From: a virus
Lineage: Duplodnaviria > Caudoviricetes
Strand: one strand, 5' to 3'
Length of the DNA stretch: 61,460 nt
Virus record (IMG/VR): IMGVR_UViG_3300025674_000039
Coordinates: 1-61,460 of that record
Notes under the pieces: generated by a model
Seen by the model: only the letters and a program-made list of their open reading frames with translations
The model's database searches: none
Told to the model about the DNA's origin: nothing
Part shown: one piece after another, positions 2,926-36,436 of the stretch
Layout of the letters: each line of letters begins with the position of its first letter
How positions within the stretch are numbered: the stretch's first letter is position 1
Translations under genes and position numbers: made by a program

Positions 2926-3495
2926 ATGACATCGACAAAGAAAAAAGCAGCAACAAAACCAATTCCAGATCTTCCTCCAAATCCTTTTGTATTTGAAATT
3001 CTGGAATTGGCATCAAAACAGAGAAGTGTTGCTAAAAAAGTTGAAGTTCTCAAAAAGTACGAGCATCCTTGCCTTAAATCAATTTTCATCTGGAACTTTG
3101 ATGATAGTATTTTAAGCGAACTCCCTGAGGGTGATGTTCCTTATGCTGCAGTCGATGAGCAAGATTCTTTCAAAGGAACATTAACTGAAAAGATTGATTC
3201 TATGGTTGGGTCCATGGAAGAACTTAATTCAAAATCTCTTGGATCACAAGATCAGGGTAAATCTTCTATTCGTAAAGAATACCAAAAGTTTTTTAACTTT
3301 ATCAAAGGCGGTAATCCATCTCTCAGTGGTCTTCGTAGAGAGACAATGTTTATCAACATTCTGCAAGGTCTTCATCCTCTCGAAGCACAGATTATCTGTC
3401 TAGTAAAAGATAAAAATCTTACTAATAAGTACAAAATTAGTAAGCAGGTAGTTTCCGATGCATATCCTGATATTATGTGGGGAAACCGGTCCTGA
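2926..3495 (+). CDS. conserved T4-like phage hypothetical protein
   Basis: LPEGDVPY and RRETMFINILQGLHPLEA motifs; late-type CTAAATA at 2891. Confidence 0.8.
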   Translation: MTSTKKKAATKPIPDLPPNPFVFEILELASKQRSVAKKVEVLKKYEHPCLKSIFIWNFDDSILSELPEGDVPYAAVDEQDSFKGTLTEKIDSMVGSMEELNSKSLGSQDQGKSSIRKEYQKFFNFIKGGNPSLSGLRRETMFINILQGLHPLEAQIICLVKDKNLTNKYKISKQVVSDAYPDIMWGNRS

Positions 3496-3519: not shown

Positions 3520-3870
3520 ATGGCAAATGCAGTTGAAACTCTAGAAAAAACAGAGCAGATTCAAATGGAACACTGGACTCAATTAGAAAGAGATGAATCT
3601 CCCAAAAGGTACGGATGCACTATCATGATTTCTAATGGGTCTTGGGAACAAGTTTGTACGACTGATGCACCATATGATGCAAAAATCGTTACATACTATG
3701 TTGACGGTCAAAAATGCCATGATTTGACTAGAAGTCAGAAAGAAGTACGTATCTTTGATATGTACTATGATAAGTTTGGTAAGAATCTCAAAAGCATTGA
3801 ATTTGGTTATGGTAAGGCAAATCCAAAGACCTGGGGATACGAAGCGCCAAAGGATAAAAAGAAGAAATAA
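3520..3870 (+). CDS. hypothetical cyanophage protein
   Basis: 116-aa ORF (IFDMYYDKFG...GYGKANPKTWG). Confidence 0.75.
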   Translation: MANAVETLEKTEQIQMEHWTQLERDESPKRYGCTIMISNGSWEQVCTTDAPYDAKIVTYYVDGQKCHDLTRSQKEVRIFDMYYDKFGKNLKSIEFGYGKANPKTWGYEAPKDKKKK

Positions 3871-3880
3871 ATCTTAAAAT

Positions 3881-3896
3881 TGTATCATAAGTTACA
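3881..3896. promoter_or_regulatory. NtcA-type binding site
   Basis: TGTA-TCATAAGT-TACA, a perfect GTA-N8-TAC with flanking T/A. Confidence 0.7.
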
Positions 3897-3903
3897 AAAC
3901 TAC

Positions 3904-3932
3904 TTGCATATATAGACCATAGGAGTTATAAT
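3904..3932 (+). promoter_or_regulatory. sigma70-type promoter
   Basis: TTGCAT (3904-3909), 17 nt spacer, TATAAT (3927-3932); predicted TSS about 3939. Confidence 0.75.
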
Positions 3933-3951
3933 ACTCTAGTACGTTCATCTC

Positions 3952-4152
3952 ATGCTCAGTATCTTACTGGCATTGACCTTAGCCCATCATGCAGACGGCA
4001 GCCCCTACGGGTGGCATATGTCGTGTGAAAGGTTTTTACAAAAACGAATTGAAATCCTAATGGATGACAATTTAGATAGACGATCTAAATATAATCTGAT
4101 AGGTTATTTTAGATCTAAAGTAGAAGGTCAATGTAATCAGACATTGACATGA
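3952..4152 (+). CDS. small protein embedded in riboswitch-like unit 1 (hydrophobic N-terminus, 2 Cys)
   Basis: 66-aa ORF; ATG and TGA both lie in the P2 stem TCTCATG/CATGAGA. Confidence 0.7.
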   Translation: MLSILLALTLAHHADGSPYGWHMSCERFLQKRIEILMDDNLDRRSKYNLIGYFRSKVEGQCNQTLT

Positions 4153-4187
4153 GACGCAAGTAAGTCGCGGAACGGAGCGTTCATCCC

Positions 4188-4349
4188 ATGATTGATCTTT
4201 TACTCTATGTCTCTATTGCCTGTCAAGATGCTGCCGATATGATCGGTCGTGTCAAGGCAAATGAATCCATGAGTAAAATTGTCAGAGCAGAGATTGTTGA
4301 AACTTTAAAAGAAGCAACACCTCAGTGTAAGTGGGACGCAAACGACTGA
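4188..4349 (+). CDS. small protein embedded in riboswitch-like unit 2 (53 aa, 2 Cys)
   Basis: Hand translation MIDLLLYVSIACQDAADMIGRVKANESMSKIVRAEIVETLKEATPQCKWDAND; GGAG at 4174-4177. Confidence 0.7.
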   Translation: MIDLLLYVSIACQDAADMIGRVKANESMSKIVRAEIVETLKEATPQCKWDAND

Positions 4350-4417
4350 AGGAACGGGGAAACGGATCCTGCGAAAGCAGAGAAGGTTAACTTTCCATTC
4401 TATTCAGGTAACGACAA

Positions 4418-4582
4418 ATGAACACACTTTCTTTAATCAAGAAGCAAATCGAAAAGCAAGCAGCTCTTCACGATGCTCAAATTATGATGACCACCTATCG
4501 TGGCGTCAAGTATGAGTGTCAGCAAGGAACTGATGAAGTGCATGGCACTTTCTGCTATCGCGGTCGTACTTACGTTAAGTGA
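4418..4582 (+). CDS. DUF4278 family protein (GifB/IF17-related)
   Basis: Hand translation MNTLSLIKKQIEKQAALHDAQIMMTTYRGVKYE...FCYRGRTYVK; two YRG motifs; AGGT SD. Confidence 0.8.
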   Translation: MNTLSLIKKQIEKQAALHDAQIMMTTYRGVKYECQQGTDEVHGTFCYRGRTYVK

Positions 4583-4589
4583 GGACGCC

Positions 4590-4685
4590 ATGCAAGCACT
4601 ACAAGTAGCAACATCAGTTTCTGTTTTAAGTATCGCTTTTCTAGGTATTCTTTACGGTGAATTAAACTTCTTATACAAGAGGTGA
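4590..4685 (+). CDS. 31-aa membrane peptide
   Basis: GAGG SD; MQALQVATSVSVLSIAFLGILYGELNFLYKR. Confidence 0.6.
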   Translation: MQALQVATSVSVLSIAFLGILYGELNFLYKR

Positions 4686-4688
4686 GAC

Positions 4689-4844
4689 ATGCTCAAAATC
4701 AAGATCTCATATGATCTTCCTGAGTATGATTCCGTGAAACATGATCCAGAAAAAGTATTTGCTTTTTTAACATATCGTGGAATTAATTATGCAAAATTGG
4801 TAAATCTCAAATCAAGGTCAATTTTGTCTCCACGAATTAAATGA
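4689..4844 (+). CDS. second YRG-motif (DUF4278-like) small protein
   Basis: Hand translation MLKIKISYDLPEYDSVKHDPEKVFAFLTYRGINYAK... (51 aa); GAGG SD. Confidence 0.65.
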   Translation: MLKIKISYDLPEYDSVKHDPEKVFAFLTYRGINYAKLVNLKSRSILSPRIK

Positions 4845-4868
4845 AGGGGTTGTACCCCTTCTTTTTTT
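4843..4868 (+). terminator. rho-independent terminator overlapping the next promoter
   Basis: GAAGGGGT-TGT-ACCCCTTC-T7; overlaps TTGTAC(4850)-17-TATGAT(4873) with an extended TG. Confidence 0.8.
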
Positions 4869-4898
4869 ATGCTATGATGGTGGAAACGTATCAAGGTC

Positions 4899-5069
4899 AT
4901 GGAGAGAGAACGACTTAAACTAATCGTAAGAAATCTAGAACTCCTTGTAGAATCTCTGAAGGTGGAGGTTTACTCTGATCCTAATTCTTACATTGATAAA
5001 AGAGAGAACTTTGATGATCCGCTAGAATATCAAGTTCAGTACGACGACGATGATGGTTATCCTGATTGA
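4899..5069 (+). CDS. hypothetical protein (56 aa)
   Basis: Hand translation MERERLKLIVRNLELLVESLKVEVYSD...DDDDGYPD. Confidence 0.75.
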   Translation: MERERLKLIVRNLELLVESLKVEVYSDPNSYIDKRENFDDPLEYQVQYDDDDGYPD

Positions 5070-5071
5070 AA

Positions 5072-5233
5072 ATGAGTAGAGCAAAAGATCTTATTAAGTT
5101 GCTTGAGCGTTTGATCAAGCAAGATCATCTTTATGATGCCGAAAGAATCAAAGAGATGAAAGCGCAACTTCGTGCTGTTAAAGAACAGGTCGAAGAAATG
5201 GAAAGGAACAATTCTAAAGGATTTGGTAAATGA
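5072..5233 (+). CDS. hypothetical coiled-coil protein (53 aa)
   Basis: Hand translation MSRAKDLIKLLERLIKQDHLY...SKGFGK; ATGA overlap with thyX. Confidence 0.75.
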   Translation: MSRAKDLIKLLERLIKQDHLYDAERIKEMKAQLRAVKEQVEEMERNNSKGFGK

Positions 5234-5883
5234 ACGTAAAACTGATCAGTGTAACTCCGGATGCGGAGAAGACCATGGCATATATTGCCCGCGTTTCAAA
5301 TCCAAATAATCAGGAAAACCCCAACTATGCTAAACTGTTGGGTTATTGTATCAAGCACAACCACTGGTCTGTGTTTGAACAGAGTTTTATGACTCTGGAG
5401 ATTGAAACGACACGTGGTCTGGCAGCTCAGATTTTGCGTCACCGTTCGTTTACATATCAAGAGTTTTCTCAACGCTATGCTGATTCTTCCTTACTCTCAG
5501 AGACGATCCCGCTCCCAGAACTTCGCCGTCAGGATACCAAGAATCGTCAGAATTCTATTGACGACATTGATCCTTTCGTCAAGCAGGAGTTCGAGATCAA
5601 AATGAGGAAGCATTTTGATGAAGCAATGGTTCTTTATCAATCAATGCTTGATATAGGTGTAGCAAAAGAGTGTGCTCGCTTTGTGCTTCCTCTGGCAACT
5701 CCTACTCGCTTGTATATGAGTGGTTCCTGCCGTTCTTGGATTCATTATATCGCACTCCGAGAAAAATCAGGAACTCAAAAAGAGCATATGGATATTGCCA
5801 AAGAATGTAAAAAAATCTTTGTAGAGCAGTTTCCAACTTGTGCCGAAGCACTTGGAGGTTTAGATGTAGATTGGGTATTGTAA
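5230..5883 (+). CDS. thyX: flavin-dependent thymidylate synthase
   Basis: HWSVFEQ; RHRSFTYQEFSQRY (RHRx7S signature); AKECARFVLP. Confidence 0.97.
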   Translation: MNVKLISVTPDAEKTMAYIARVSNPNNQENPNYAKLLGYCIKHNHWSVFEQSFMTLEIETTRGLAAQILRHRSFTYQEFSQRYADSSLLSETIPLPELRRQDTKNRQNSIDDIDPFVKQEFEIKMRKHFDEAMVLYQSMLDIGVAKECARFVLPLATPTRLYMSGSCRSWIHYIALREKSGTQKEHMDIAKECKKIFVEQFPTCAEALGGLDVDWVL

Positions 5884-36209: not shown

Positions 36210-36281
36210 GGGAATGTCGCCTAAAGGTAAAGGCCCTCTGCTTATAACGGAGTGATCTGGGTTCAAGTCCCAGCATTCCTA
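36210..36281 (+). tRNA. tRNA-Ile(UAU)
   Basis: Acceptor GGGAATG/CATTCCT; anticodon arm CTCTG-CTTATAA-CGGAG; TTCAAGT T-loop; no encoded CCA. Confidence 0.9.
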
Positions 36282-36284
36282 TTC

Positions 36285-36357
36285 GCAGGTCTAGCAATTT
36301 GGTAAATGCAGCGTTCTCATAAAGCGCCTAAAAAGAGTTCGATTCTCTTGACCTGCA
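36285..36357 (+). tRNA. tRNA with CAU anticodon (elongator Met or Ile2)
   Basis: GCAGGTC/GACCTGC; GCGTT-CTCATAA-AGCGC; lacks initiator features. Confidence 0.88.
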
Positions 36358-36362
36358 CCTAC

Positions 36363-36436
36363 GCCCGAGTGACCCAGCGGAATGAGGTTCTCGACTTAAA
36401 ATCGAGCAGTCGCGGGTTCGAATCCCGCCTCGGGTA
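36363..36436 (+). tRNA. tRNA-Leu(UAA) with short variable loop
   Basis: GCCCGAG/CTCGGGT; CTCGA-CTTAAAA-TCGAG; GCGGG-TTCGAAT-CCCGC. Confidence 0.9.

Follow-up and report, generated by a model that had tools for sequence, protein, structure and literature searches.

Two small genes nested in the hairpin loops of a composite glnA-type glutamine riboswitch candidate of marine cyanophages

The marine cyanophage record IMGVR_UViG_3300025674_000039, which was analysed over its whole length of 61,460 bases and is here called the window, carries the dispersed parts of a putative glutamine riboswitch that span approximately 415 bases around two small genes. In the interval 3942-4357 the 5' module CGUUCA and the 3' module GACGCAA-N9-GGAACGG are each present twice, and each pair of 5' and 3' modules brackets one conserved small open reading frame (ORF). 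Comparison with relatives in other phages indicates that these parts make up one composite aptamer of the glnA class (type I), with a second binding core inside its P3 element, and not two independent aptamers arranged in tandem. We lean, without great conviction, towards the view that the element is a glutamine riboswitch, placed directly at the 5' terminus of an early-type transcript, and that the nested genes and the downstream gene are oppositely controlled by it.

The usual view of a riboswitch aptamer is that of a compact, contiguous leader domain which folds ahead of the ribosomes. In the phage element translated genes separate the strands of one aptamer by 200-415 nucleotides (nt), and by about 1 kb in Synechococcus phage Sf-CH5. 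If the proposed reading is true, long-range folding that competes directly with translation can give rise to a metabolite sensor, and the class escapes standard covariance-model scans even in model cyanophages such as syn9. Moreover, the phage control of host nitrogen metabolism via IF17-like proteins would gain an extra layer.

Layout of the element, its nested genes and its natural relatives

Exactly two copies of the motif GACGCAA-N9-GGAACGG exist in the 61,460 bases (4153-75 and 4335-57), with none expected and none found in 100 shuffles; CGTTCATC by itself is weak evidence, being observed three times against 1.13 expected. An earlier note, made from the letters of the window, had proposed two glutamine-riboswitch-like units, each with a gene inside its hairpin loop, and all of the letters named in it are present where it placed them: CGTTCA at 3942-47 and at 4178-83, the stem strands of both units (Table 1), and the P2 extension TCAGT/ATTGA beyond one bulge. 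In unit 1 the ATG and the TGA of an ORF of 66 amino acids (aa) lie inside the two stem strands, and in unit 2 the 53-aa ORF runs through the 3' strand and the junction. The linking strand that follows the outer P2 (4155-4167) is nearly invariant across 187 parsed loci. The binding-core nucleotides named in PMC6698751 (CGUUC, CGC, GGAACG and the next G) are all present in both cores of the window, and G4357 is likely the long-range partner of C4157, by analogy with the C:G long-range pair described there for the glutamine-II riboswitch.

Table 1. Features of the riboswitch candidate and of the operon that follows it, in window coordinates
Feature	Positions	Strand	Basis
Sigma-70-type promoter: -35 TTGCAT 3904-09 (3/6 consensus), 17-nt spacer, -10 TATAAT 3927-32	3904..3932	+	read from sequence
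a1, outer P1 5' strand CGUUC	3942..3946	+	partner 4352-4356; covariation in relatives
Outer P2, stem TCTCATG 3948-54 / CATGAGA 4148-54, loop with ORF1	3948..4154	+	covariation, predicted pairing, short hairpin in relatives
Nested gene 1, 66 aa, PHROG 6471, syn9 gp196 family	3952..4152	+	start in P2 5' strand, stop in P2 3' strand
CGC linking strand 4155-57, E-loop half AAGUA 4158-62, P3 5' strand AGUCG 4163-67	4155..4167	+	RF01739 consensus CGg-AAGUA-P3
Inner helix GGAACG (a1' = 4170-74), loop G-AG, CGUUC (a2 = 4178-82)	4169..4182	+	covariation
Inner hairpin, stem TCCCAT 4184-89 / GTGGGA 4331-36, loop with most of ORF2	4184..4336	+	covariation, predicted pairing
Nested gene 2, 53 aa, PHROG 504, syn9 gp197 family	4188..4349	+	ORF, PHROG family
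Second CGC 4337-39, AAA, P3 3' strand CGACU 4343-47	4337..4347	+	cmscan alignment of compact relatives
E-loop half GAAG 4348-51, outer P1 3' strand GAACG (a2' = 4352-56), G4357	4348..4357	+	cmscan alignment of compact relatives
Expression platform: CUGAA 4346-50 / UUCAG 4403-07, adjoining and overlapping Shine-Dalgarno AGG 4406-08	4346..4408	+	covariation
Downstream gene, 54 aa, DUF4278-like (IF17-like; PHROG 545, syn9 gp198 family)	4418..4582	+	PF14105 match
Hydrophobic ORF, 31 aa	4590..4685	+	ORF call; in relatives
ORF, 51 aa, YRGxxY motif, PHROG 6192	4689..4844	+	ORF call; in relatives
Intrinsic terminator: 8-base-pair GC-rich hairpin, then T run	4843..4868	+	terminator scan

As supposed in the earlier note, both nested ORFs are real genes. 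The frame from the AUG in the 5' stem strand is intact in 48 of 49 distinct elements for gene 1 and in 152 of 152 for gene 2, purifying selection is indicated by median pairwise dN/dS values of 0.19 (gene 1) and 0.35 (gene 2), and the variation falls mostly on third codon positions. The start codon stands at offset 10 from CGTTCA in 146 of the 152 elements with ORF2 and in 36 of the 49 with ORF1. Gene 2 also ends at the same place, inside the 3' core of the aptamer, in 144 of its 152 distinct elements, its last codons (WDAND-stop) extending from the 3' strand of the stem over the second CGC and the 3' strand of P3 into the first bases of the E-loop. The gene families are specific to their loops: the 152 inner genes form one cluster, and the outer genes fall into another cluster of 46 and two singletons. 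Genes 1 and 2 are distant paralogues that share a Cys...Cys core (hhalign probability 94%, E 1e-7, 39 columns), which would fit copying between the loops through the shared aptamer flanks. With regard to the function of the nested proteins, Pfam gave no match, and the PHROGs and the ESM Atlas returned only families or clusters without an assigned function; a second copy of gene 2 was not found in the window's own record. ORF2 is preceded at 4174-77 by GGAG, which is likely its Shine-Dalgarno sequence to judge from the letters and which belongs at the same time to the inner helix. The linker that makes this GGAG reads AG(N) in 149 of 153 ORF2-bearing elements of the GGAACGG type, as compared to none of the eight with a short inner hairpin.

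In Synechococcus phage Sf-CH5 (L325, 444-1456) a third gene of 190 aa is found between the middle GAACG and CGUUC, besides genes 1 and 2, so that all three terminal RNA loops are loaded and the outer P1 would span 1007 nt. The product of this third gene is named a homing endonuclease by the depositor's annotation only, no Pfam family having been found for it at E<=0.001. Remnants of this same insert, 63-98 nt in length, are present in other loci, including L080, L119 and L177.

Natural compact relatives were used in place of an in-silico deletion of the loops. The cassette is common to many T4-like cyanophages; blastn matched 386 phage records, including syn9 (gp196-198), Syn19, S-CAM1 and S-SCSM2R, and an exact search of IMG/VR with the 21-nt junction of unit 1 gave at least 119 loci, the element counts given here resting on the matches listed. 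In most of the junction loci listed CGTTCA lies only 18-53 nt upstream, and the interval is a hairpin whose stem letters vary yet stay paired. Thus, around an identical 21-nt junction, a covarying hairpin of 18-53 nt replaces ORF1 and a hairpin of 12-27 nt replaces ORF2, and the placement of the genes inside hairpin loops, as claimed in the earlier note, was borne out by loops that are short in relatives. After removal of duplicates 162 distinct whole elements were parsed, which fall into four loading classes: a short outer and a gene-bearing inner loop in 104, genes in both loops as in the window in 48, both loops short in nine, and a gene-bearing outer with a short inner loop in one. An unbiased sample of 80 loci, fetched through the downstream protein, contained both modules in 71, which speaks against decay; among these 71, 24 are doubly loaded, 45 carry a gene in the inner loop only and two are cut at the first strand, while in the other nine of the 80 the locus is truncated or the 5' module may lie outside the retrieved DNA.

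The doubly compact forms place the element in a known family. Seven of the eight compact+compact loci tested by cmscan (nine are known) reach 38.4-43.6 bits against the glnA model RF01739, above its gathering score of 35. Single compact units score 23-31 bits with this model, and compact unit 2 of the relatives scores 34.0 bits in one locus (L036) and 19.9-31.6 bits in others against the glutamine-II model RF01704 (gathering score 33). By contrast, and as forecast in the earlier note, covariance models miss the element of the window: neither glnA nor glutamine-II was matched in the window at the Rfam gathering score, nor at E<=10 on 3850-4750 (901 bases), and the search of the whole record with RF01739 gave a spurious match of 12.1 bits at 4293-4323 and no other. 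This miss is due to the loop contents of 193 nt and 141 nt. The composite element of syn9 (gp196-198) likewise has no Rfam match, and the compact aptamer pattern was not found in the window's own record.

A single variant among the relatives (L193, 523-769) has the same 8-letter string, AGCCGACU, as both of its P3 strands in place of AGUCG and CGACU and does not fit simple P3 pairing. Furthermore, a scan of genome contigs with GGAACGG-N2-4-CGTTCAT gave at least 120 loci in unrelated bacteria, of which two fit a fuller pattern; both look like chance matches, and the scan is uninformative on hosts.

Pairing of the aptamer strands

The stems that enclose the genes were found to covary in sequence comparisons, the check that the earlier note had asked for, and both the outer P2 and the inner hairpin show two-sided changes. 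In 49 distinct ORF-bearing sequences 95.2% of the cells of the outer P2 are paired, with two-sided changes at two pairs (CG 24 / UA 22; CG 21 / UA 12 / AU 1), and none of 500 shuffles of the gene-bearing forms scored as high. The short form of P2 also covaries, to a degree that none of 1000 shuffles reached for its 62 end pairs. Even the stop codon of gene 1 varies together with its stem partner, as UGA-UCUC, UAA-UCUU and UAG-G-UCCU. In the inner hairpin, for which 66 distinct end pairs were compared, positions 1-4 are paired in 98-100%, and position 4 covaries (CG 44, TA 13, TG 6, AT 2; 0 of 1000 shuffles as high). The P2 hairpin directly follows CGUUC-A, as in RF01739, and its coding loop of 193 nt is outside the known range of the family. 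Pair probabilities predicted by ViennaRNA for an RNA of 485 nt are 0.41-1.0 for the outer P2, 0.78-0.98 for the inner hairpin and 0.73-0.83 for the middle GAACG/CGUUC helix.

The earlier note had recognised the parts of a glutamine-riboswitch aptamer, which is in accordance with our results, but its assignment of a separate P1 to each of two units is not, since the distinct elements with a short outer hairpin, 159 among the matches listed, all pair crosswise. When the P1 strands are read in the order first, middle 3', middle 5' and last, the combination is CGTTC/GAACG/CGTTC/GAACG in 99 of the 159, CGTTC/CAACG/CGTTG/GAACG in 53 and CGTTT/CAACG/CGTTG/AAACG in seven. In all of them the first strand matches the last and the middle strand matches the middle, whereas tandem pairing is mismatched in 60. 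The exchanged letters came to attention through L180, a locus of the unbiased set with GCAACG and CGTTGA in the middle, which prompted a pattern search for any change at the middle G that gave at least 120 further loci. On an alignment of 35 sequences, chosen as 14, 14 and 7 of the three strand combinations, the crosswise structure has 98.9% of its cells paired; the fifth pair of the outer P1 (3942-46 / 4352-56) is C:G in 28 and U:A in seven, and the diagnostic pair of the middle helix (4170-74 / 4178-82) is swapped between G:C and C:G (21 and 14), with no sequence unpaired at either. On the same alignment the tandem structure, which pairs for instance 3942-46 with 4170-74, leaves 21 of the 35 sequences unpaired at both diagnostic places.

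The covariance model arrives at the same arrangement. In the best cmscan alignments of the compact relatives CGUUCA-P2-CGC-AAGUA-AGU of unit 1 is joined to ACU-GAAGGAACG of unit 2, and the 38-48 nt between the halves are treated as an insert in P3. AAGUA is present in unit 1 only and GAAG in unit 2 only, and therefore a complete E-loop exists only crosswise; both strands match the RF01739 consensus at the sequence level, the G being an A in 36 elements. Moreover, the spacers of the two units are complementary to each other over five base pairs, AGUCG with CGACU, which would give P3. The pseudoknot of glutamine-II riboswitches, in which the 5' CGUUC pairs with GGAACG in the loop of the next hairpin, was not recovered: CGUUC 4178-82 covaries with the GAACG upstream of it and not with 4352-56. 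Taken together, these comparisons indicate a single composite aptamer of the glnA type whose P3 contains another core, and this second core would be a circularly permuted copy, made of the helix 4170-74 / 4178-82, the gene-2 hairpin 4184-89 / 4331-36 and the second CGC. In the glnA alignment of Weinberg 2010 (PMC2864571) pieces resembling unit 1 and unit 2 are given as separate RNAs, and some glnA RNAs are described as tandem; the crosswise arrangement appears to differ from this published account.

Expression context, proposed control and alternatives

The promoter of the window ends 9 nt upstream of the first aptamer base, and from its position the RNA should start about 2-3 nt upstream of that base. 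Of the 230 distinct elements for which 50 nt of DNA on the upstream side were available, 201 combine a -10 element ending 5-11 nt before CGTTCA with a -35 element that agrees with the consensus in at least four of six positions; the promoter of the window, with three of six, is below this rule of the promoter scan and was not listed by it. At the other end of the aptamer, a covarying helix connects, according to the comparison of relatives, the 3' part of the aptamer with the Shine-Dalgarno region of a DUF4278-like gene. The third pair of this anti-Shine-Dalgarno helix is G:C in 76, G:U in 46 and A:U in 36 of 166 distinct elements and unmatched in eight, and A never stands with C. That a DUF4278-like gene follows, as held in the earlier note, agrees with a match of 4418-4582 to PF14105 (20.3 bits, E 7e-4), which is below the cut-off of 25.3, and with the YRG motif visible in the product; this gene is presumed to be the regulated one. 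A small hairpin, CUGC-GAAA-GCAG with a GAAA loop, is located between the aptamer and the Shine-Dalgarno region (4369-4380); it reads CAGC/GCUG in syn9 and CUCC/GGAG in Syn19, covaries by eye and is absent in relatives with a short spacer. The hydrophobic 31-aa ORF lies between two DUF4278-like genes, a position kept in syn9-like relatives, and is part of a GTG-started ORF at 4500-4685.

Contigs of four RNA-library (metatranscriptome) runs cover approximately 3930-4830 at a summed depth of 20-57, as compared to 0-1.35 at 4842-4902 and 5-14 beyond, and the contigs of three runs stop at 4828-4833. Uncovered parts are not counted as evidence, and neither is the low cover of 3927-4109 in two of the runs (X3 and X4), which probably reflects relatives without gene 1. 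Contigs of all four runs (X1-X4) join 4178-4190 to 4332-4335 with 4-9 other letters between; such joins come, as transcripts or as DNA, from relatives whose inner hairpin is short and which co-occur with the gene-bearing form in the same samples. The literature search found no usable study of transcription starts or early genes in syn9. Upstream of the operon a DUF6433 protein is encoded at 2926-3495 (127.8 bits) and downstream of it ThyX at 5230-5883 (PF02511, 161.9 bits). The neighbourhood of the cassette varies among phages, the cassette being located after nrdB in syn9 and Syn19, after petE in S-SCSM2R and near RNase H in S-CAM1. Elsewhere in the window three adjacent tRNA genes were found at 36210-36436 (52-61 bits).

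In cyanobacteria both types of glutamine riboswitch precede DUF4278 genes and glutamine turns translation on (PMC6212724), and the same direction is assumed for the phage element. Following this, we propose that at high glutamine and on ribosome-free RNA the core would fold, CUGAAGG would be kept in P3 and the E-loop, and the Shine-Dalgarno region of the DUF4278-like gene would be released; by analogy with IF17, the product would act on glutamine synthetase. The folded core would at the same time hide the 5' end in P1 and both nested start codons in helix strands. A ribosome translating either nested gene would, conversely, hold the core apart, and a ribosome terminating gene 2 at 4347-49 would occupy P3, the E-loop and the 3' strand of P1. 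Because the start codons are located in helix strands, nested translation and a folded sensor would be mutually exclusive on one RNA molecule, and as a result the nested genes and the downstream gene would be controlled in opposite directions. Reciprocal control of this kind is plausible, and opposite control by glutamine of the nested genes and the DUF4278-like gene appears the most likely outcome by this analogy. A wider and rather doubtful version would make the element a kilobase-scale riboswitch around translated genes that forms two cores by strand exchange, integrates glutamine and translation load and toggles between paralogous two-cysteine peptides and IF17-like regulators of glutamine synthetase, its flanks acting as homology arms that copy genes between loops; such homology arms would explain the paralogy of both nested genes.

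Several points weigh against a glutamine-responsive composite element. The window itself does not reach the gathering score of RF01739 (35 bits) or of RF01704 (33 bits), and its membership in the riboswitch family is deduced from homology to compact forms. Its four P1 strands have the consensus letters, which permit crosswise as well as tandem pairing, and constrained folds of the two are only 2.5 kcal/mol apart (-139.2 and -136.7 kcal/mol, respectively), while the unconstrained minimum of -147.2 kcal/mol is lower than both and forms neither P1. Covariation in P1 is confined to one position per helix and reflects at least two evolutionary events, and P3, with 99.4% of the cells of its five base pairs paired, shows changes from G:C to G:U and from U:A to U:G only, never two-sided ones. 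The GGAG linker is found in only 25 of 75 elements of a sister clade. According to the predictions, both hairpin stems hold even in the absence of ligand, so that the start codons may be equally masked with and without glutamine, which weakens the idea of a switch. Moreover, a ribosome terminating gene 2 would melt the anti-Shine-Dalgarno helix, and the downstream gene could thus be coupled to the nested gene instead of opposed to it. Finally, the RNA-library cover is a weak hint of a transcript, as contigs cannot show 5' ends and carry-over of DNA is possible.

Three other explanations have to be considered. The nested genes might be passengers that settled in insertion-tolerant loops, much like endonuclease genes in the loops of introns, and are translated regardless of glutamine, the riboswitch controlling only the DUF4278-like gene and the stems being retained solely for the needs of the aptamer. 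This is possible, if on the whole unlikely, and it would be in line with the predicted stability of the hairpin stems, with the occurrence of gene-sized inserts in all three terminal loops somewhere in the family (including the third loop of Sf-CH5, with its outer P1 of 1007 nt) and with loaded and empty loops in all four combinations. However, the start codons are fixed inside stem strands and do not lie free in the loops, gene 2 lacks the space for a separate Shine-Dalgarno sequence and borrows letters of the aptamer, the AG linker tracks gene 2, and gene 2 terminates within the 3' core of the aptamer in nearly all of its elements; as ribosomes must physically disrupt the core, full independence is hard to picture. 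Alternatively, the insertions might have disabled the sensor, its halves being kept as the 5' end and Shine-Dalgarno sequence of the nested genes, as the part of gene 2 that encodes its C-terminus or as sites of recombination. Despite the fact that no covariance model matches in the window and that folding over 415 nt, or 1007 nt in Sf-CH5, against ribosomes seems difficult, we regard such a relic as highly unlikely: the loop-closing stems still covary after insertion, the core letters are equally invariant in loaded and empty elements, including the non-coding 4155-4177, and the second core keeps the same degree of sequence conservation where gene 2 is absent.

Hardly probable at all, in our judgement, are two independent tandem aptamers with their own P1 helices (3942-46 / 4170-74 and 4178-82 / 4352-56), each a P3-less sensor resembling glutamine-II, a fold that might also be used as a second conformer. 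The letters of the window allow it, both units have a 10-nt spacer from CGCA to GGAACGG, the single compact units reach the scores given above with RF01739 and, in one locus, exceed the gathering score of RF01704, and Weinberg 2010 separates unit-like pieces and mentions tandem occurrence. On the other hand, both tandem P1 helices are mismatched in the 60 elements in which the crosswise helices stay fully paired, the full E-loop is formed crosswise only, and the complementarity of the spacers, which would form P3, joins one unit to the other.

Comparison with known systems

The phage element resembles the type-I glutamine riboswitch (glnA, RF01739), for example the leader of Synechocystis gifB (IF17), in the order of P1 CGUUC/GAACG, A, P2, CGC with AAGUA, a putative P3 and GAAGGAACGG (PMC6212724; PMC2864571). 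The aptamer is likewise located at the 5' end of the mRNA of a DUF4278-like protein and has a 3' segment that can pair with the ribosome-binding region (PMC6212724), and the polarity CGC...GAACGG is also found in rows of the published glnA alignment (PMC2864571). In contrast to type-I glnA, the phage P2 contains a gene of 66 codons and the phage P3 a second binding core and a gene of 53 codons, and the aptamer, at 415 nt as compared to about 55-60 nt, is undetected by the Rfam model. With the glutamine-II riboswitch (Downstream-peptide, RF01704) it shares CGUUC, a hairpin, CGC, GGAACGG and the C:G long-range pair, as well as a helix that begins right after CGA and holds GGAACGG in its loop (here 4346-50 / 4403-07) and the marine picocyanobacterial setting upstream of short DUF4278 genes (PMC6698751). 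Contrarily to glutamine-II, the last GAACG of the phage element pairs with the first CGUUC, 410 nt upstream, and passes over the nearest one, GAACG precedes CGUUC in the permuted inner copy, and GGAACGG is followed by the 3' strand of the helix only after 46 nt, as compared to 2-3 nt.

A compact glnA match of 99 nt (RF01739, 44.0 bits) was reported for cyanophage S-CREM1 (PMC9964418, Table 4); in the accessible part of that paper it stands as one ordinary glnA match, and an inner core or gene-bearing forms are not mentioned. Ten strings with AUG at the position of the nested ORFs gave 0 occurrences in the glnA alignment of Weinberg 2010, with supplement file 3 outside the search. The literature search found no account of genes inside a glutamine aptamer in the texts accessible to it, while Ames and Breaker 2011 and Ren 2015 may treat tandem or long-loop forms. 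The S-CREM1 match is probably the same composite element without genes, since its 99 nt fit the 86-97 nt of the hybrid matches to the 53-position model. Thus, the compact cyanophage glnA was already known, and the gene-bearing form of the aptamer was not found described.

Outside the glutamine riboswitches, group I and group II introns carry ORFs for homing endonucleases or maturases in the loops of a structured RNA. Similarly to these introns, the phage element has a putatively functional fold with ORFs in peripheral hairpin loops, which contain a gene in only part of the relatives, and one phage relative, Sf-CH5, has an annotated homing endonuclease in the third loop. The difference is that the phage RNA would be a metabolite sensor on an mRNA and not a ribozyme, and that start and stop codons lie within its stems, as a result of which translation and folding collide directly. 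Tandem glycine aptamers are the familiar example of tandem riboswitches, and the phage element agrees with them in having two ligand-binding cores on one leader. Unlike the glycine aptamers, however, its cores do not stand side by side, being interleaved with P1 partners that pair crosswise, and if this arrangement is true, it alters the reading of glnA RNAs that have been taken as tandem.

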